A DNA stretch of 64,000 bases. Source: an uncultured Pseudomonadales bacterium (lineage in GTDB: Bacteria > Patescibacteriota > Microgenomatia > UBA1400 > PJMF01). The DNA is taken from contig CAYTIA010000005.1 of the NCBI GenBank assembly GCA_964437755.1, positions 802 through 64,801 of the forward strand, given 5' to 3'. This document shows, in pieces, positions 1,438-63,934 of this stretch. Positions within the stretch are counted from its first letter, which is position 1, and each line of letters starts with the position of its first letter. The notes beneath the pieces are model-generated. The model was not told the DNA's origin and searched no databases. It was given only the letters and a program-made list of their open reading frames with translations. The position numbers and the translations under genes are program-made.

Positions 1438-2694
1438 ATGATTGAAACAGGATCGCAAAGATTTCTTAAGAGCTCATCGGCTGAAATTGAAACACTCACT
1501 CAGCCATTTTTCCCAATTGGTTGTCCTGGAAAAGACGACACAGCCTGGATTGAAGTACAAACAAAAACACTTGAAGTTTATGAAACCCTTTTGTCTGATC
1601 TCAAAGAGAAAGGCTTAGAAGTAGGAGATATTAAGGATGCTCTCCCAAAAAATTATAGAAAAGTTGATTATTTTGTAGCAGACTATCATGCTCATGTGTC
1701 TCAAGTGTTACAGGTGATTAATAAGGTGTTGCTGAGCGTTGGAACTGAAGAACAAATCAATACTATTGTTTTTCTTGATAAGAGTGGCAGAATTGTAGCC
1801 CACTTGTTCAAATCTATGTGGAATGATTTAGTGAATATGGGGTTAATTAATAGGTCTGACAAATGTCCAAAGATCCGATTTTTAAATGATGGTTATGATA
1901 ACTGGCAGAAAAGGAAAAGAATTAGTTCTATGCATGTTATTGATTATATAAAAAGAATTGCGGGTAGGAGTAGTGTGTTAATTGTAGATGAAGTAATATC
2001 GTCTGGTACAACGATTCGCTCTGCATTAGATAATTTTGAGATTGCTGGGGTCAATATCTTGGGGGGTATGTCAGCTTACCACTTTACTCCTCAATGGTAT
2101 GGGGAAAATGATGGAGTTAAGGGAGTAGATGATGTACCCATACAAGAAGAAACCTATGATGCTTTTGAAAAGTTATCTGAGCGAGAGTTCATTTTTTTTA
2201 AAGATATTATTAACAGATTGAGAGAATCAAATTTATTTGAAGAAATTATCCCTCCTTTGATCCAAGGTAAACTAGATGGGATATCGGAGATGTTAGGACG
2301 TGAGCCTTTGAGTTTTTCGACAGAAGAGATAGAGAGAGTAAAGGACATCATTAATAAAATTAAATTTGATCTAATGAACGCTGCTCCATCTAGAGAGGGG
2401 AAACTAGATTATGCGGTAAAGCAAATTTTCTTGTATTTCAAATACTATGCTGGATATTTAGCACAACCCTTTAGTACATCAAAAGAGAGAAGAACAGGTT
2501 ATTTATACAGAAGAGTCTTAAGAGAGATGATTAGAGAATCTACAAAACATTTTTATCTAACCAAAGAAAAAGATGAGCAAGAATTTTCAGACACCGAGTC
2601 GTTCTGCAAGGATGATGTGTTAGAAATGATGGTGCAAACAGACGGAAAGTTAGCAAGATTGTTAAATATGATTAAGAATTTATTTAGTAAATAG
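1438..2694 (+). CDS. Phosphoribosyltransferase-domain protein with long C-terminal extension
   Basis: PRPP-binding motif VLIVDEVISSGTTIRSA; about 200-aa C-terminal region without recognisable motifs. Confidence 0.5.
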   Translation: MIETGSQRFLKSSSAEIETLTQPFFPIGCPGKDDTAWIEVQTKTLEVYETLLSDLKEKGLEVGDIKDALPKNYRKVDYFVADYHAHVSQVLQVINKVLLSVGTEEQINTIVFLDKSGRIVAHLFKSMWNDLVNMGLINRSDKCPKIRFLNDGYDNWQKRKRISSMHVIDYIKRIAGRSSVLIVDEVISSGTTIRSALDNFEIAGVNILGGMSAYHFTPQWYGENDGVKGVDDVPIQEETYDAFEKLSEREFIFFKDIINRLRESNLFEEIIPPLIQGKLDGISEMLGREPLSFSTEEIERVKDIINKIKFDLMNAAPSREGKLDYAVKQIFLYFKYYAGYLAQPFSTSKERRTGYLYRRVLREMIRESTKHFYLTKEKDEQEFSDTESFCKDDVLEMMVQTDGKLARLLNMIKNLFSK

Positions 2695-2755
2695 CGGGTG
2701 TTTAATCTTTACTCCTATTTACATCTAAAAACTTGGATGATACAATCTCTCAGTT

Positions 2756-2989
2756 ATGAAAAGTTATGATCTCAAATATCCATCGGTGGCAAGCATTGGT
2801 CACAATGTTTCTCACGCTAAAAATAGAACCTCTCGTGCTTTTAAGAGAAATTTGCACACTGTAACCCTAATGGTTGACGGTATTCGTAAGCGCTATAAGG
2901 TTCCTACAAAAGTGTTACGAGTCATGAAAAAACAGGGAGTAACTACTCACTGGAAAAATCCTCTTGTAGATTCAAAAGCGACCGATTAA
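2756..2989 (+). CDS. rpmB: 50S ribosomal protein L28
   Basis: GHNVSHAKNRTSRAFKRNLHTVTL matches the L28 core; length 77 aa. Confidence 0.8.
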   Translation: MKSYDLKYPSVASIGHNVSHAKNRTSRAFKRNLHTVTLMVDGIRKRYKVPTKVLRVMKKQGVTTHWKNPLVDSKATD

Positions 2990-3975
2990 TACTGTTTTTC
3001 TTGATCTATTACCACGTTTTTTACCTGATTCCAGCTAGATATTTCTTGACCCTCAATTTTAACTCTTTCAAGAATAAGTTTACTGTTTAAGCCTTCTGCT
3101 AGAACATTACACTCAAAAATTTGCATTCTTTTCTCTCCCTTTGTTGTTGGAATGGTTGTCCAGAGTAATGGCCAAGGTTGGAAAGCTTGGCAAGCACGAG
3201 CTACAACTTCGGGCCAGAGTTCAGAAGAAGTTTGTTGAAGCACATCTTTAATAAGAGATTCTTCCAATGAACTACAGTCAGCGAATACTTGCTGATTATT
3301 GAATAAACTTGATAGAAACTTCCAACTAATAAAAGCATCGTTTTTCAAGATTTTTCTGGCATAAGGAGTGGGTGAAGCAATGGGCTGCGTCTTTTCTTGT
3401 TTTGGGTTTTGTTGATATTGGTCAATCCAATTAGCCATATGATTACAAACTAACTCAAAACTATGTTGATAATAATTTTCGGCGTTCCAGCTCTCTTCAA
3501 CAAGAAATTCAACTTGATTGATTATTGGCCCAGCATCAAGTTCTGAAGTAATTCTAATTAGTGTAACTGCTGATTTTTTGTCTCCATGAAGAATGACAAA
3601 CTGTCCTGGTGAACTACCTCGCCATTTGGGTAGAGCAGACGGATGGATGTTTATAGGGGTTAGTTTAGGAAATGATAAAAGCCAGTTGGGAATAAAGTAT
3701 CCAAAATCAACGACTAATAAAAAATCTGGTTGTGGGAAATCAGGATTAATCTGATCAATTTTTTTATCAATCAATTGAAAATTAATTTGATTTTTGATTG
3801 CCCACTGATGAAGTGGATTGCTGAATATCTCTTGTTTTCTACCTACTTTTTTGGGAGAAGGGGTTAAGATCCAGCAGATATTGAATCTTGAATCATTAGC
3901 AAGAGCTTGAGCTACCATTAAGCTGTGTTTGGTGCTACCAGCTATGGCTATCTGTATTGTTGGGGAGATGCTCAT
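2986..3975 (-). CDS. fmt: Methionyl-tRNA formyltransferase
   Basis: Formyltransferase N-domain with NIHPSALPKWRGSSP motif and an Fmt C-terminal domain; immediately downstream of def. Confidence 0.85.
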   Translation of the reverse strand: MSISPTIQIAIAGSTKHSLMVAQALANDSRFNICWILTPSPKKVGRKQEIFSNPLHQWAIKNQINFQLIDKKIDQINPDFPQPDFLLVVDFGYFIPNWLLSFPKLTPINIHPSALPKWRGSSPGQFVILHGDKKSAVTLIRITSELDAGPIINQVEFLVEESWNAENYYQHSFELVCNHMANWIDQYQQNPKQEKTQPIASPTPYARKILKNDAFISWKFLSSLFNNQQVFADCSSLEESLIKDVLQQTSSELWPEVVARACQAFQPWPLLWTTIPTTKGEKRMQIFECNVLAEGLNSKLILERVKIEGQEISSWNQVKNVVIDQEKQY

Positions 3976-35272: not shown

Positions 35273-35854
35273 ATGGAAAATATCCCGCAAGTTTTTATTA
35301 TTGTAGCAACCAGTCTTGATGGATTTATTGCTCAAACAAGAGAGCAGTCATCAGTTAGTTGGGCAAGCAAAGAAGACAATCAGTTTTTCCATCAAAAAAC
35401 AAAAGAGGCAGGGGTGATAGTGATGGGTAGTTCGACATTTAAAACCATTGATCCAAAATATCTGCCTCTTTCTGATCGTCTGAACATTGTTTATACAAAT
35501 TTTTCCAGCGATACTTTAGTAAAAGAACTTGGACTAAACCAAAGAAAGGTTAATCAAAGAAACTTGATGATAACCACTCAACCTCCAAAAGATTTAGTAA
35601 AAGAATTGGGAAAGATGGGCTATAAGCAGGTTGCGATTTGTGGTGGGAGTTCCATTTATACTCAGTTTCTGCAATCAGGGTTAGTAAGCAAAATTTTTGT
35701 TACTGTTGAGCCAGTTATTTTTGGTGATGGCATTAAACTTTTTAATCAGGTAGAAACAAAGAAAATGAAGCTATTGTCTATAAAGCAGCTCAATGATCGA
35801 GGCACATTACAACTTGAATATGAGTTAATCAATGAAAGTCAGAATGAAGGTTAA
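35273..35854 (+). CDS. Dihydrofolate reductase family (RibD C-terminal-like) protein
   Basis: VFIIVATSLDGFIA...GVIVMGSSTFKTI pattern of DHFR/RibD-C proteins. Confidence 0.55.
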   Translation: MENIPQVFIIVATSLDGFIAQTREQSSVSWASKEDNQFFHQKTKEAGVIVMGSSTFKTIDPKYLPLSDRLNIVYTNFSSDTLVKELGLNQRKVNQRNLMITTQPPKDLVKELGKMGYKQVAICGGSSIYTQFLQSGLVSKIFVTVEPVIFGDGIKLFNQVETKKMKLLSIKQLNDRGTLQLEYELINESQNEG

Positions 35855-60437: not shown

Positions 60438-62369
60438 CTAGCGTTTCTGGATGATTTCTATTGCTTCTTGGGTTTTTAACTGTTTTTGTTCTCCAGATAC
60501 CATATTTTTTAAAGAGACGGTGTTTGAACTGAGCTCATCCTCTCCAATAATAACTACCCAGGGAATTTTTTGCTGATTTGCGTACCCAAACTGTTTTCCA
60601 AGAGCATCAAATTCAGGGTAGATACTTGCTTCAATCTTTTCTTGACGAAGTTTGGTTACGACTTTTAGTGTTTCTGGTAGCAACTCTTCAGAAAAAATTG
60701 ATACGAGTACTTGTGCTGAGGAGTTTGAACTTGGAACAAGTCCTAGTTTAACTGCAGCTTCAACGGTGCGATCAAAGCCAAATGCTACTCCAACTGCGGG
60801 AATGGACTTTGAGCTAAGCTGTTCTATTAGATTATCATATCTGCCTCCTCCTCCACATGATCCACCTGAATATTCAGGCAAGATAACTTCAAAAATCAAG
60901 CCCGTATAATAATCTAGTCCTCGTGCTAGAGTGGGGGAGAAGACTAAAGTTTCTTTTGGAACTCCTAAGGATATTGTTTGCTCAATAATCTGTTTTAGAT
61001 TATCACTAGATTTTACATCTTTGAGAGAACCGAGAAGTTTAATTGATTGGTTTTTCATTAAGCCTTTTTTTTCGAGCTCATCAATCACCTCAGACTCGGT
61101 TTTTTTATCAAGTTTGTCTATGGTTTGGATAATACTAAAAATATCAACTTCCTTATTTGCATAAGGTTTAATAGTTGAGATCAGGGTTTGACGATCATTA
61201 ACGATTAACTTAATTTTTTTAAAACCAATATTCTCATATGATCGATAAGTGCAGGCTAAGATTTCTGCATCTGCTAGAGTTGATTTGGTTCCATAAATAT
61301 CTACATCACAATGACAGAATTCTCGATATCTTCCGGCTTGTGGTTTATCGGCTCTGAACACATTTTGTATTTGATATCTTTTAAAGAATTTTGGAAGATT
61401 GTTTTGATACTGAGCAAGAATACGAGCTGTTGGTACTGTTTGATCATATCTCAAGCCAATCTTTCTTTTACCTCTATCTTCAAAAGTGTAAACTAATTTA
61501 TCTGCCTCATCGCCATATTTTCCAAGTAATAACTCTGCGTACTCAACGGTAGGTGTTTCCAAGGGTTCGAACCCAAAAAGGGTAAAGACTTCAACTATCT
61601 TGTTTTGGACATATTCTCTTTGTCTTTTTTCTTCAGGAAGAAAATCTCTAAATCCCTTAAGTGTTTGTAATGTTTGTTTATTCATAATCTGTTGATTTTG
61701 ATAATTAATTTCTTGGACTTTTGCTGAAATGGTAACCAACTGTTTTGTCTTGTCAATTATAACCGAGATTTTTTCACCACTTGGCTGAATAATTTCTGAT
61801 AAATCAGAGTAGGTGCTAAACGCTATACTGCCAGATCCACAGGCCGTTTCTTTAACTAGTGAATTTGTATCTTTAACATAAACAGTTGGATATATTTTAT
61901 TTTCTTGGTATTCCACCAAGCCAAAAGCGGGTAGATTAAACTGCTTACAATAGAATCTTGCTTTTTCTTCAAACTGTTTGATGGAAGCTGATTTTTTTTG
62001 GATTAAGTAGCCAATTCCGTCTAATAAAACAATATTTTTCTCAACGATTTTAGGATTAATTGGTAACTTTATCGTAGTTTTGTTTTTTTGATTAGAATAA
62101 AGTACCTTGGACTTTCCAACTCCACTAGTGAGTAGTTCTCCCTTATCTCCTAAGCTATACGCAAAGGCGATGGCTCCATTAACAGATAGCTCATTTCCCA
62201 TCATTTTCAGCTTTGGGATATTTTTATCATACGAAACATAGCCAACCTGTTCAACCTCTAGGAGCAAATCTTTGGTGAATATATTAAAGTCTTGATTAAG
62301 TTGTTTATTTACCAGCGCAGTTAGATTGCCTCCTGCGATAAGGTATCTTTTTTGAGTTTGAATTTTCAT
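60438..62369 (-). CDS. hisS: Histidyl-tRNA synthetase with an in-frame N-terminal DapF/PhzF-fold domain of about 220 aa
   Basis: Class II HisRS from MNKQTLQTLKGFRDFLPEE onward (motifs 1-3, HisA/HisB, anticodon-binding domain). The N-terminal region carries a DapF-like C-terminal-lobe motif ETACGSGSIAF and SVNGAIAFA where the first-lobe Cys would be. Confidence 0.8.
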   Translation of the reverse strand: MKIQTQKRYLIAGGNLTALVNKQLNQDFNIFTKDLLLEVEQVGYVSYDKNIPKLKMMGNELSVNGAIAFAYSLGDKGELLTSGVGKSKVLYSNQKNKTTIKLPINPKIVEKNIVLLDGIGYLIQKKSASIKQFEEKARFYCKQFNLPAFGLVEYQENKIYPTVYVKDTNSLVKETACGSGSIAFSTYSDLSEIIQPSGEKISVIIDKTKQLVTISAKVQEINYQNQQIMNKQTLQTLKGFRDFLPEEKRQREYVQNKIVEVFTLFGFEPLETPTVEYAELLLGKYGDEADKLVYTFEDRGKRKIGLRYDQTVPTARILAQYQNNLPKFFKRYQIQNVFRADKPQAGRYREFCHCDVDIYGTKSTLADAEILACTYRSYENIGFKKIKLIVNDRQTLISTIKPYANKEVDIFSIIQTIDKLDKKTESEVIDELEKKGLMKNQSIKLLGSLKDVKSSDNLKQIIEQTISLGVPKETLVFSPTLARGLDYYTGLIFEVILPEYSGGSCGGGGRYDNLIEQLSSKSIPAVGVAFGFDRTVEAAVKLGLVPSSNSSAQVLVSIFSEELLPETLKVVTKLRQEKIEASIYPEFDALGKQFGYANQQKIPWVVIIGEDELSSNTVSLKNMVSGEQKQLKTQEAIEIIQKR

Positions 62370-62380
62370 AATATTTTTCC

Positions 62381-62487
62381 ATAAAAAACAGTCACCTGGG
62401 TTTTTGCAGAAACAAAAAACCCGCTTAGCTAGCGGGGGTGGTGACTGTTTGAAAAATTTTATTAAATAAACACGTTAAATCACCCCG
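62381..62487 (-). promoter_or_regulatory. Putative transcription attenuator in the hisS leader (terminator/antiterminator hairpins with U-tracts)
   Basis: Minus strand: CUAGCGGGGUG (segment 1) ... CAGUCACCACCCCCGCUAGCUAAGCGGGUUUUUUGUUUCUGCAAAAACCCAGGUGACUGUUUUUUAU. There is a 6-bp GC terminator stem followed by U6; an alternative 8-bp GGGUUUUU/AAAAACCC stem; an outer 8-bp CAGUCACC/GGUGACUG stem followed by U6. Segment 1 can pair with 9 of the terminator 5'-arm nucleotides. Confidence 0.5.
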
Positions 62488-62541
62488 CTAGATAGCGTGG
62501 TGATGATGGCGAAGCTGATTTTGCACATCTTTGATTAACAT
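62488..62541 (-). CDS. Putative hisS leader peptide MLIKDVQNQLRHHHHAI (17 aa) with four consecutive His codons
   Basis: ATG ... CAU CAU CAC CAC GCU AUC UAG; the stop codon lies inside attenuator segment 1. The ATG is 7 nt downstream of the -10 element, so the mRNA is near-leaderless. Confidence 0.5.
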   Translation of the reverse strand: MLIKDVQNQLRHHHHAI

Positions 62542-62548
62542 AAAGACA

Positions 62549-62577
62549 ATTATAACAGCTACAATCTTCCAGAGCAA
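62549..62577 (-). promoter_or_regulatory. Sigma70-like promoter for the hisS leader (-35 TTGCTC, 17 bp, -10 TATAAT)
   Basis: Minus strand ttgctc-N17-tataat immediately upstream of the leader-peptide ATG. Confidence 0.4.
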
Positions 62578-62622
62578 TAAATTAGTGTAGCGGTGTGATA
62601 AAATCTGATTGACGGCGAAAAT

Positions 62623-62695
62623 GGGCTTGTAGCTCAGGTGGTAGAGCACTGCTATCGCACAGCAGGGGTCAGGGGTTCGACTCCCCTCAAGTCCA
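62623..62695 (+). tRNA. tRNA-Ala (anticodon CGC)
   Basis: Cloverleaf GGGCUUG/CAAGUCC acceptor with G3:U70 Ala identity pair; D-arm GCUC-AGGUGGUA-GAGC; anticodon loop AUCGCAC; T-arm AGGGG-UUCGACU-CCCCU; discriminator A; CCA not encoded. Confidence 0.8.
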
Positions 62696-62719
62696 CAGTG
62701 AAGTAAGGCGTGTGTTCGG

Positions 62720-63454
62720 TCAATCTAAGCTGACTAAGGCTTTTACGATTTGTGCGATTTTCTTTTCTTCATCTCCAGAATTATCAATATATCCTGCTAT
62801 TACAACCTGCACATCTTCAAACAGATCCGAAATCGAAATTTCATTGTTCTCAGCATCAATTATTTGAGCATTCTTATTTAGCGAGAAGGTGCTTGTTGAT
62901 GAAGAAATTCTAGATTCAATACTAAGGCTTGAACTTGAGATCTCCTTCACAGCACCAATAGTAACAACTTGAGGTCTTGGCATTATTTGGTCATCATCTA
63001 CGATTACTTTTATAGGGGTAAATGTTTCACCAGTTTGTAATCCAAGAGCAATGACGGAGTTTTCAATTTCAATATCAGCAATTAATAGCTGTTTATCATC
63101 TTTAATTAGTTCTACGGCTGGAGTAATGGGAATGATCACTGATCCAGATATGTTGCTGATGGTAATGGCTGATTCTGATACTCTTTCAACAACTCCCACA
63201 ATAGCTCTAGTTTTATAATCAATCTGTCCTGCAACTGAACCGTTTTTGTTTTCCTTTTCTTCGACAACTTTCTCAATTCTTTCCTTTAAAGAAGCAGTTG
63301 TGGCTGAAGTTGCTTCTTGATCAGTCTTTTCCTCAGCTCTAGTTTCTTGAGCAGCTACCAACATATTATGGTCATAGCTAAATACTCCTGTTATTAAAGT
63401 TATGAGAAAGGTAATTAAGAGTATTTTTGTGAAGCTATTTAAGGTTTTTAGCAT
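62720..63454 (-). CDS. Secreted/membrane-anchored hypothetical protein
   Basis: N-terminal hydrophobic anchor; no motifs. Confidence 0.35.
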   Translation of the reverse strand: MLKTLNSFTKILLITFLITLITGVFSYDHNMLVAAQETRAEEKTDQEATSATTASLKERIEKVVEEKENKNGSVAGQIDYKTRAIVGVVERVSESAITISNISGSVIIPITPAVELIKDDKQLLIADIEIENSVIALGLQTGETFTPIKVIVDDDQIMPRPQVVTIGAVKEISSSSLSIESRISSSTSTFSLNKNAQIIDAENNEISISDLFEDVQVVIAGYIDNSGDEEKKIAQIVKALVSLD

Positions 63455-63463
63455 AATATTTTG

Positions 63464-63934
63464 TTATGATTCTGATTCTTCTTCCTCGATTTGAGGCTGA
63501 TCTTCAAGAGTAAGTTCTTGGTTGTATACCACTACGGTTCGAGTAACTGAAACTACTTCACCAGTTGAGTCTATGCTGTGCACGTTGATAATATTTGCCA
63601 AAGGTTTGAGTTCAAATTCTTTTGAAAAGTTTCCGGTTTCATCTGATTGAGTGATAAACGGAGTATCATTGATATAAATAATAACATTTGAATTTTGACT
63701 GGTGTTGCCAGTTATTTTAACTATTTTATCTGCTTGAATAGATTCATTTTCTGGACTAAAAAGAGTTAGTTTACCTGTATTCTGGTCAGTTGAAGATGAA
63801 TCAGAAGGTTTACCATTTTCAATATTAGTAATTTGGTTAACCTCTGTAGTCTGTTGCGAGTGATAGTATCCATAGGTAATAAACAACCCCATCACCAGAC
63901 CAATAATAATAGCAATTAATATTTCTTTTCTCAT
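63464..63934 (-). CDS. Membrane-anchored protein with a bacterial Ig-like domain
   Basis: N-terminal TM; IVKITGNTSQNSNVIIYINDTPFITQSDETGNFSKEF resembles Big/Ig-like beta-sandwich repeats. Confidence 0.4.
   Translation of the reverse strand: MRKEILIAIIIGLVMGLFITYGYYHSQQTTEVNQITNIENGKPSDSSSTDQNTGKLTLFSPENESIQADKIVKITGNTSQNSNVIIYINDTPFITQSDETGNFSKEFELKPLANIINVHSIDSTGEVVSVTRTVVVYNQELTLEDQPQIEEEESES

Follow-up and report, generated by a model that had tools for sequence, protein, structure and literature searches.

Upstream of a histidyl-tRNA synthetase gene (hisS) in a 64,000-nucleotide (nt) stretch of contig CAYTIA010000005.1, from an uncultured bacterium of GTDB lineage Patescibacteriota, lies a short element (62381-62577, minus strand) that very probably acts as a leader-peptide transcription attenuator. 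The whole 64-kb stretch is referred to below as the window, and positions are counted from its first letter. As judged from sequence and modelled RNA folds, the attenuator would tie the expression of a protein in which a histidine-racemase-like domain is fused to histidyl-tRNA synthetase (HisRS) to the supply of charged tRNA-His. An earlier sequence-only reading of the same DNA had proposed ribosome-mediated attenuation of hisS, and the comparative and folding evidence described here supports that proposal with amendments. Beyond the window, a His-codon attenuator of hisS is supported as a recurrent, if predicted, feature of one group of Patescibacteria.

In the proposed mechanism, transcription would start at or beside the leader AUG, and the 17-codon leader would be translated from a leaderless mRNA. 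With an ample supply of His-tRNA(His), the ribosome would pass four His codons, reach the UAG and cover region 2 (CUAGCGGGGUGAU); region 3, being free, would then form a first terminator, T1, followed by the outer stem CAGUCACC/GGUGACUG with its U6 (terminator T2), and transcription would stop before the gene. With no ribosome on the leader, region 1 would pair with region 2, and the terminators would form too. When charged tRNA-His is scarce, a ribosome stalled on codons 12-15 would hold region 1, leaving region 2 to pair with region 3 as it emerges. This 2:3 pairing would block the 5' arms of T1 and/or T2, the 3' arm and U-tract of T1 would fold into hairpin 2, and the polymerase would enter the gene. 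If true, the element would provide homeostatic feedback on tRNA-His charging, as the functional equivalent of a T-box. The parts of the element, all on the minus strand, are as follows.

62572-62577, minus: -35 hexamer TTGCTC, read directly, matching TTGACA at 3 of 6 positions
62549-62554, minus: -10 hexamer TATAAT, after a 17-nt spacer and 7 nt ahead of the leader ATG
62488-62541, minus: leader open reading frame (ORF) of 17 codons plus UAG, MLIKDVQNQLRHHHHAI, with its ATG at 62541
62497-62508, minus: His codons CAU CAU CAC CAC (codons 12-15), the proposed sensing site
62494-62504, minus: region 1, AUCACCACGCU, 5' arm of the 1:2 hairpin, overlapping His codons 13-15 and Ala16
62479-62491, minus: region 2, CUAGCGGGGUGAU, holding the UAG, with region 1 or region 3 as partner
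62429-62447, minus: region 3, CAGUCACCACCCCCGCUAG, made up of the 5' arms of the outer stem and of T1
62414-62436, minus: terminator T1, CCCGCU-AGCUA-AGCGGG plus U6, -10.3 kcal/mol
62398-62422, minus: hairpin 2, GGGUUUUU(UGUUUCUGC)AAAAACCC, -10.2 kcal/mol
62447-62440 and 62396-62389, minus: outer stem, CAGUCACC/GGUGACUG, which with the second U6 makes terminator T2
62383-62396, minus: 3' part of T2, namely the outer 3' arm (62396-62389) and the second U6 (62388-62383)
60438-62369, minus: regulated gene, 643 amino acids (aa), histidine-racemase-like at about 1-230 and histidyl-tRNA synthetase at about 235-643

These elements, their conservation, their complementarities and their alternative folds are observed or computed directly, and at this level most of the sequence-only reading stands. 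Its TTGCTC-17-TATAAT promoter with an ATG 7 nt on is correct to the base; its 17-codon ORF with four consecutive His codons is borne out at 62541-62488; and the stop does fall inside a complementary segment, the UAG being embedded in CUAGCGGGGUG, within region 2 (62491-62479). The three hairpins that it described all lie where it placed them, including the outer stem and second U6, whose UUUUUUAU tract (62388-62381) ends 11 nt short of the gene ATG at 62369. Its account of the pairings overlooked the 1:2 hairpin of the His codons with region 2, as well as the role of the outer stem and second U-tract, which probably constitute a second regulated terminator. The leader promoter is not listed by a consensus promoter scan because its -35 hexamer matches only 3 of the 6 positions of TTGACA. 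GTGACT-16-TATTAT, which the scanner does list, was rejected as the hisS promoter, since its -10 overlaps the start codon of the gene.

The run of four CAY codons at 62497-62508 is the sole one on either strand of the window, and the other runs of three lie within genes or antisense to genes. T1, which an independent terminator scan also finds, is the only perfect GC-rich stem with T6 that stands just upstream of a gene and not after one, and the whole-window scan found no other leader-type attenuator or premature terminator. Full-context folding, put forward by the sequence-only reading as a check on marginal hairpins, gives -54.5 kcal/mol for the 183-nt region (z = -5.5), a value equalled by none of 200 shuffles. 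The 1:2 hairpin, in which AUCACC-CGCU (His13-15 and Ala16) pairs with AGCG-GGUGAU, amounts to -13.3 kcal/mol. As duplexes, the His-codon segment (region 1) with region 2 reaches -16.1 kcal/mol (equalled by 2/2000 shuffles), and region 2 with region 3, from which it is separated by a 31-nt AU-rich spacer, reaches -19.6 kcal/mol (0/2000). The composite T2 structure comes to -23.4 kcal/mol, and hairpin 2 in its full form, the read-through conformer, uses up the 3' arm and U-tract of T1. Region 1 (AUCACCA-CGCU) is alike region 3 (GUCACCACCCCCGCU), and region 2 (AGCGGGGUGAU) is alike a split region 4 (AGCGGG...GGUGAC); T1 and T2 are therefore read as nested terminators served by one antiterminator, and both are probably under control.

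Recurrence of leaders that cannot be aligned with that of the window is the strongest evidence for a His attenuator. Relatives were gathered via protein matches and exact-sequence look-ups and are denoted by locus numbers; a genome-collection scan returned no close relative of the whole protein, only a 36%-identical Clostridium hisS. A His-codon ORF with a GC stem and a U-tract, the pattern by which the sequence-only reading would have related attenuators recognised, was found at further hisS loci. Elsewhere in the group, leaders with 2-4 His codons, a region-2 complement and a GC hairpin with U-tract recur ahead of hisS, as listed here (each leader ending at its stop codon).

L014 (64% HisRS identity, other upstream gene): leader MNKIVQLLTKIAHHHRV; TATAAT, 6 nt, ATG; then AACGGGGUG and terminator ACCCCCGUUUGGGGGU-U6
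L097/L098 (L014 relatives): leader MNKTVLLLTKVAHHTHS, 17 codons
L099 (L014 relative): leader MNKLVQLITKVVHHPHA, 17 codons
L100 (L014 relative): leader MNTNIKAQLVAHHNFHI, 17 codons
L018: leader MEFNVCSKTSAHHHSLHTVGVFSRR (...SAHHHSL...), GC hairpin and U-tract
L031: leader MKMNLLKCFATLKLIHHHTPLLGGVSSDC (...LIHHHTP...), GC hairpin and U-tract
L034: leader MTIETKNLINIHHHTILLLPKGLGLF (...NIHHHTI...), GC hairpin and U-tract
L038: leader ...NHHHIPLKLAKGSS (...NHHHIP...), 5' part lost at the contig end, GC hairpin and U-tract
L024 (1350-1465): leader MTNMNLNVSHHSPDPDGGCCCML (...VSHHSP...), terminator CCCGCCACGGCGGG-U7

The HisRS proteins of L097-L100 are 80-70% identical to that of L014, and their leaders have diverged at a constant length of 17 codons; the terminator stem is GCUCCC/GGGAGU in L100 and CCCCC/GGGGG in the other L014-type leaders, the MAFFT alignment of four such leaders being too rough for pairs to be counted. 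The leaders of L018, L031, L034, L038 and L024 come from 80 metagenomic hisS loci among the matches listed, and all five belong to the 28 sampled loci with at least 43% identity to the window HisRS. In about half of those 28, hisS lies less than 60 nt behind another gene, with no space for a leader, and among the matches listed no His leader was found in the roughly 50 sampled hisS loci at 42% identity or below. The background frequency of three consecutive CAY codons in the sampled hisS loci is 0.053 per kb. Matches to His-His small ORFs (sORFs) upstream of hisS in L054, L061 and L064 were rejected as leaders, being the C-termini of TrpR-like proteins. The L024 leader has only two His codons, which occupy the region-1 position, along with three Cys codons. 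In L018 (1205-1500), leader and terminator stand about 300 nt upstream of hisS with an apparent small ORF (MNKGSKELFL...) between, and the attenuator there may control a two-gene unit.

Each leader transcript, ending at its U-tract, was folded three times: as free RNA, with the footprint of a ribosome stalled on the His codons masked, and with that of a ribosome at the stop masked. A ribosome protects about 15 nt downstream of its P site, and at the stop codon of the window leader it would cover region 2; in each family the stop is placed so that a terminating ribosome would do the same. In each of the six relatives folded under these constraints (L014, L097, L099, L100, L031, L034), a ribosome at the stop lets the terminator form. 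Placing the second His codon in the A site makes the 2:3 antiterminator displace the terminator, again in 6/6; when the A site holds the last His codon, the terminator remains in L099 and L100. As free RNA, L014, L097, L099 and L100 fold into the 1:2 hairpin plus terminator, and L031 and L034 into the 2:3 pairing at equilibrium. When the segment from the stall site to the terminator was shuffled, disruption of the terminator recurred in only 3-31 of 500 trials per locus.

These families bear on the idea that the RNA itself is the sensor, through T-box-like binding of tRNA-His or as a histidine riboswitch, the ORF being coincidental. In Firmicutes, hisS is usually regulated by T-boxes (PMC2965389), and the His codons could serve as specifier codons. 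However, in every family the His codons stand in frame in an ORF that runs from AUG to stop and begins 5-9 nt past a -10 box, and the stop is always positioned for a terminating ribosome to cover region 2. The element also has no conserved UGGN bulge or Stem I features, and Rfam searches found no T-box (RF00230) in the window (gathering score, or E up to 10) or, at gathering score, in 20 related hisS loci. Direct sensing is thus scarcely credible. The Rfam model for His_leader (RF00514) has no match in the window region either, even at E up to 10, and the T-box and His_leader hypotheses for the region were both rejected on these searches. No known Rfam cis-regulatory family covers the region at gathering score; the best sub-threshold cis-regulatory match is a full-length one to Trp_leader (RF00513), at 23.1 bits against a gathering score of 41. 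The element resembles His_leader and Trp_leader in its mode of action without belonging to either sequence family.

Closer to the window, the element is kept ahead of the orthologous gene in five syntenic relatives, between a tRNA-Ala gene and the hisS-type gene. HisRS identity to the window is 93% in L004, 76% in L005 and L006 and, for the HisRS part, about 81% in L008 and about 74% in L009. Across the six aligned members (the window and the five relatives), the -35, -10, leader ORF, region 2, T1 arms, outer arms and U-tracts are invariant, with L008 as the exception, which carries one synonymous AAU>AAC change in the leader ORF and one G>A in region 2. Variation is found in the promoter spacer (4 of its 17 positions, the flanking TTGCTC being the same in all six), the 7-nt discriminator after the invariant TATAAT (constant in length, variable in sequence), the AU-rich spacer, the T1 loop (AGCUA, AGCAC, AGAAC or AGCCA) and the loop of hairpin 2, which is shortened in L008. 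Upstream of the -35, L006 carries an insertion of 120 nt. The RNAalifold consensus of the six consists of a 5' stem, AUGUUAA/UUAACAU, followed by a small hairpin, then the 1:2 hairpin, then a three-way structure of T1, hairpin 2 and outer stem.

Another reading of the hairpins is an ordinary intrinsic (or bidirectional) terminator of the upstream 244-aa gene (62720-63454, minus), next to a short ORF that arose by chance; that gene shares the strand of the hairpins, and between the two no further terminator was seen. The hairpins, however, lie about 280 nt past it, with a divergent tRNA-Ala gene and its promoter between, and the syntenic relatives L011-L013, which have no His leader, also have no hairpins. 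Moreover, the same design occurs behind different upstream genes, such as an M24 peptidase gene in L014 and L097, and chance complementarity between regions 2 and 3 is excluded by the shuffling. The probability left to such a coincidence is almost negligible.

Translation of the leader probably begins without a 5' untranslated region, or nearly so, at the predicted start site. Of the eight leaders examined, seven have their AUG 5-7 nt after a -10-like hexamer, and in L099 the gap is 9 nt:

TATAAT, 7 nt: window family and L100
TATAAT, 6 nt: L014 and L097
TAAGAT, 6 nt: L034
TAAAAT, 5 nt: L031
TACCAC, 6 nt: L018 (weak)
TACAAT, 9 nt: L099

No leader examined has a Shine-Dalgarno motif. Given this absence and the short spacing, the leader is likely translated from a 5'-terminal AUG. 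Only about 8 of the 58 long ORFs in the window have a Shine-Dalgarno-like motif, a scarcity that hints that leaderless or Shine-Dalgarno-independent initiation is common in the organism. Hexamers like the -10 box lie 4-9 nt before the starts of 19 of the 58 window ORFs, which is not clearly above the AT-rich expectation. Several genes do have good -10 boxes 6-9 nt before their starts, among them 63464-63934 (minus; TATAAT, 8 nt) and 35273-35854 (plus; TATACT, 6 nt).

The regulated gene (60438-62369) is itself without a clear Shine-Dalgarno, and T2 ends only 11 nt before its ATG at 62369. A stalled ribosome might then act mainly on translation of the downstream gene, a structured region ending 11 nt before the AUG hindering initiation unless remodelled, with T1 and T2 incidental or secondary; leaderless sORF attenuators that act on translation are documented (10.1101/834739). 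Against this stand the U6 tracts after both hairpins, kept in 6/6 family members, the terminators of the other families, which are too far from the hisS start (40-300 nt) to mask it, and the predicted folds, which show no pairing with the start region of the gene. Translational control as the main output is accordingly improbable.

Several observations weigh against transcription attenuation as proposed here, and the first concern the folds of the window itself. The sequence-only reading held that a stalled ribosome frees a segment to block T1 and favour hairpin 2. The second part is borne out by antiterminated conformers that contain hairpin 2 in full, but at equilibrium T1 persists. With the ribosome on the His codons, the equilibrium fold pairs GGGGUGAUU with AGUCACC.CC (-19.8 kcal/mol), so that region 2 captures the 5' arm of the outer stem and T1 stays formed. 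The T1-blocking register that had been named, CUAGCGGGG:CCCCGCUAG, comes to -17.8 kcal/mol and a second, bulged one, in which T1 and the outer arm are both blocked, to -17.1 kcal/mol, which makes the T1-blocking folds 2-3 kcal/mol weaker than the equilibrium one. Antitermination at T1 therefore relies on kinetic pre-emption. In a longer transcript the antiterminated conformers with full hairpin 2 stand at -27.8 and -27.1 kcal/mol and the terminated three-way structure at -31.4 kcal/mol. In the trp attenuator, too, the 3:4 terminator is more stable than the 2:3 pairing, and since the terminated fold is likewise the more stable here, kinetics must settle the outcome: a free region 2 would encounter region 3 before the 3' arms have been transcribed. 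One register would still allow the outer stem to form as a pseudoknot.

Comparative points on the same side of the balance are the following. While the His run and hairpins that the sequence-only reading expected to be conserved in relatives are indeed found in five of them, the covariation that it hoped for is essentially nil in the close family (1/47 predicted pairs with a double change; RNAalifold covariation term -0.04), because the stems barely vary; recurrence and shuffle controls were used as evidence in view of these invariant stems. The element is sporadic, L011-L013 (syntenic, 66% HisRS identity, unfused) having neither leader nor hairpins, and in many relatives hisS is packed directly after another gene, as in L007 (52%, fused), where it lies 5 nt behind one. 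Having no Shine-Dalgarno, the leader would depend for its translation on leaderless initiation, which is not known to have been demonstrated in this phylum, and the start site, leader translation, stalling and termination at T1 and T2 are inferred. Finally, the whole leader ORF is invariant in its nucleotides, which is more than a simple attenuator needs.

That last point deserves closer attention. The ORF is nucleotide-identical in the window, L004, L005, L006 and L009 at all 16 non-Met codons. In hisS, conserved residues of the window and of L005 or L006 share their codon in 52-53% of cases, and third positions are 50-53% identical; at about 0.52 per codon, the chance of an identical leader is about 3e-5 in a single pairwise comparison. 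Selection must therefore act on the nucleotides of the whole ORF. Overlapping structural demands, those of the 1:2 and 2:3 pairings, of the small hairpin and of the 5' stem that the AUG region makes with UUAACAU, may suffice to explain this invariance, which includes the N-terminal part of the ORF that a simple attenuator leaves free, or the leader RNA or peptide may have a second function.

In the extreme, the 125-165-nt transcript would be mainly a small or dual-function RNA and its His ORF secondary. Identity of the leader ORF in five genomes whose hisS synonymous sites are near-saturated (about 52% codon sharing) would fit such an RNA, as would its own promoter and terminators, and trans-acting small RNAs derived from attenuators exist, rnTrpL of Sinorhizobium being an example (PMC7968998). 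On the other side, what families with no sequence in common still share is limited to the His codons, a complement of region 2 and the terminator, which argues for His-specific cis-regulation as the conserved function. A trans role would add to this and not replace it. In this survey, in which other genes of these genomes were not searched, the element was seen upstream of hisS only. A chiefly trans-acting RNA is, on balance, highly improbable.

Constraint at every nucleotide of the RNA may point to a second function alongside attenuation, and a bolder form of the attenuator reading can be drawn from it. There, a leaderless double-terminator His sensor would be made of an RNA with a second function, as a trans-acting leader RNA or peptide, and the racemase-like domain would be co-regulated with HisRS. 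All of this together is rather unlikely. If true, a previously unrecognised step of histidine salvage or handling (D-/L-His or His capture) would be wired to tRNA-His charging in Patescibacteria, and there would be direct genomic evidence of tight transcription-translation coupling in reduced-genome uncultured bacteria.

Regarding the gene that the attenuator would control, the sequence-only reading called it hisS. This is right for residues of about 235-643, a complete class-II HisRS with its anticodon-binding domain (Pfam tRNA-synt_His, HGTP_anticodon), but the gene is not a plain hisS, since residues 1-230 (61680-62369) form a histidine-racemase-like domain, with a precomputed PF26317 CntK_N assignment and a match to PDB 9cr1, 'Histidine racemase' (E = 3e-6). 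The NCBIfam HisR/CntK models fall far under their cut-offs for this domain, which looks like a distant relative of histidine racemase. Its second Cys (ETxCGSGS) is retained and MMGNELSxN is invariant; the first catalytic Cys (GEF-C-GN) is Ser in all five homologues, which makes a canonical two-Cys racemase doubtful. The open-access literature yielded no paper on a histidine racemase together with HisRS.

The identical 643-aa protein is present on two ENA metagenome contigs, and the closest named HisRS homologues carry the labels Patescibacteria, Pacebacteria or Woesebacteria, on which the analysis based its placement of the window; the window has a G+C content of 36%. The N-terminal domain is missing from most relatives at 74% HisRS identity or below (the L011 gene lies at 2501-3766), and the L008 product (2501-3934) has 477 aa against about 645 aa in the fusion homologues. 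L009 (1645-3748) has one gene for the racemase-like part and another for hisS; its leader, which stands ahead of the first, would therefore control both. The fusion is, on this comparison, evolutionarily labile. The 61-nt spacer between the two L009 genes holds a GC-rich palindrome, CCCCGGGGCAAGCCCCGGGG, and a TATAAT.

Upstream of the leader, the surroundings hold one further feature:

62623-62696, opposite strand: tRNA-Ala(CGC)

A conserved extended -10 box, TGTGATAAAAT (about 62593-62603, plus), lies about 20 nt ahead of this tRNA gene, and the conserved intergenic block TCAGATTTTATCACA is explained by it. At other loci, a small TrpR-like gene (YerC/YecD-like, PF01371) stands directly upstream of hisS (in the three more distant loci L054, about 1250-1394; L061, 1291-1425; L064, 1259-1390) or, in L007 (689-1003), about 2 kb upstream with two genes between; its product could be a regulatory protein, or its position may reflect no more than conserved synteny.

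Gene regulation in Patescibacteria, or the candidate phyla radiation, is little known. If the attenuator is real, these bacteria use intrinsic termination, and their transcription and translation are coupled tightly enough for a ribosome to govern attenuation. A direct monitor of tRNA-His charging would be sensible for cells that must import histidine; to our knowledge, the group of the window organism usually lacks histidine biosynthesis. A racemase-like domain fused to HisRS under the same His signal would also give a testable clue to the role of the domain. Noteworthy features are that the leader is apparently translated leaderless, that its two terminators are nested, and that the target is a racemase-like/HisRS fusion. 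The sequence-only reading knew of no earlier description of such regulation in this lineage. That holds in so far as no paper on attenuators in Patescibacteria was found in the open-access literature; leaders of synthetase genes and of hisS paralogues are, however, known elsewhere (PMC1262725, PMC2965389). In mechanism the element follows the classical pattern of trpL, hisL and pheM, and what is notable is where it is found and what it regulates, not a new principle.

The hisL-hisG and trpL attenuators of E. coli and Salmonella share with the window element a short promoter-proximal ORF with tandem cognate codons (seven His codons in hisL), the alternative 1:2, 2:3 and 3:4 pairings, the GC hairpin with U-tract, and a stop placed to mask region 2. 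Unlike these, the window element controls a tRNA synthetase gene and not a biosynthetic operon, its leader is seemingly leaderless with no Shine-Dalgarno, and its two terminators are nested, the first U-tract being sequestered by an inserted hairpin. The same logic underlies the pheST attenuators of gamma-proteobacteria and the trpS and leuS attenuators predicted in Streptomyces (PMC1262725), in which a ribosome on a leader ORF reads the charging of one tRNA and sets the cognate synthetase; the present element does so for another amino acid, in another phylum and with unrelated sequence.

The mycobacterial leaderless poly-Cys sORF attenuators have the sORF at the 5' end of the transcript, as the window leader probably does, and a stall at a single type of codon remodels the downstream RNA, but they control translation by unmasking a ribosome-binding site (Canestrari et al., 10.1101/834739), whereas the U-tract terminators of the window point to transcription termination. 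With the T-boxes of Firmicutes hisS genes the element has its input in common, the charging of tRNA-His, and also its output, terminator read-through before hisS; a T-box uses no ribosome, however, and the window has no T-box structure. A further precedent is the His leader peptide that Naville and Gautheret predicted in 2010 ahead of a hisS paralogue (hisS*) and of hisZ in bacilli (PMC2965389), which shares the His-codon sORF and the premature terminator before a hisS-family gene. In bacilli that leader is found at paralogues tied to histidine biosynthesis while the main hisS keeps its T-box, whereas the window leader precedes what is apparently the housekeeping hisS (one hisS is visible per contig). 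The attenuators of hisS switch sensing systems between lineages (PMC2965389), and the present element carries this theme into a further phylum, in a version that is likely leaderless.

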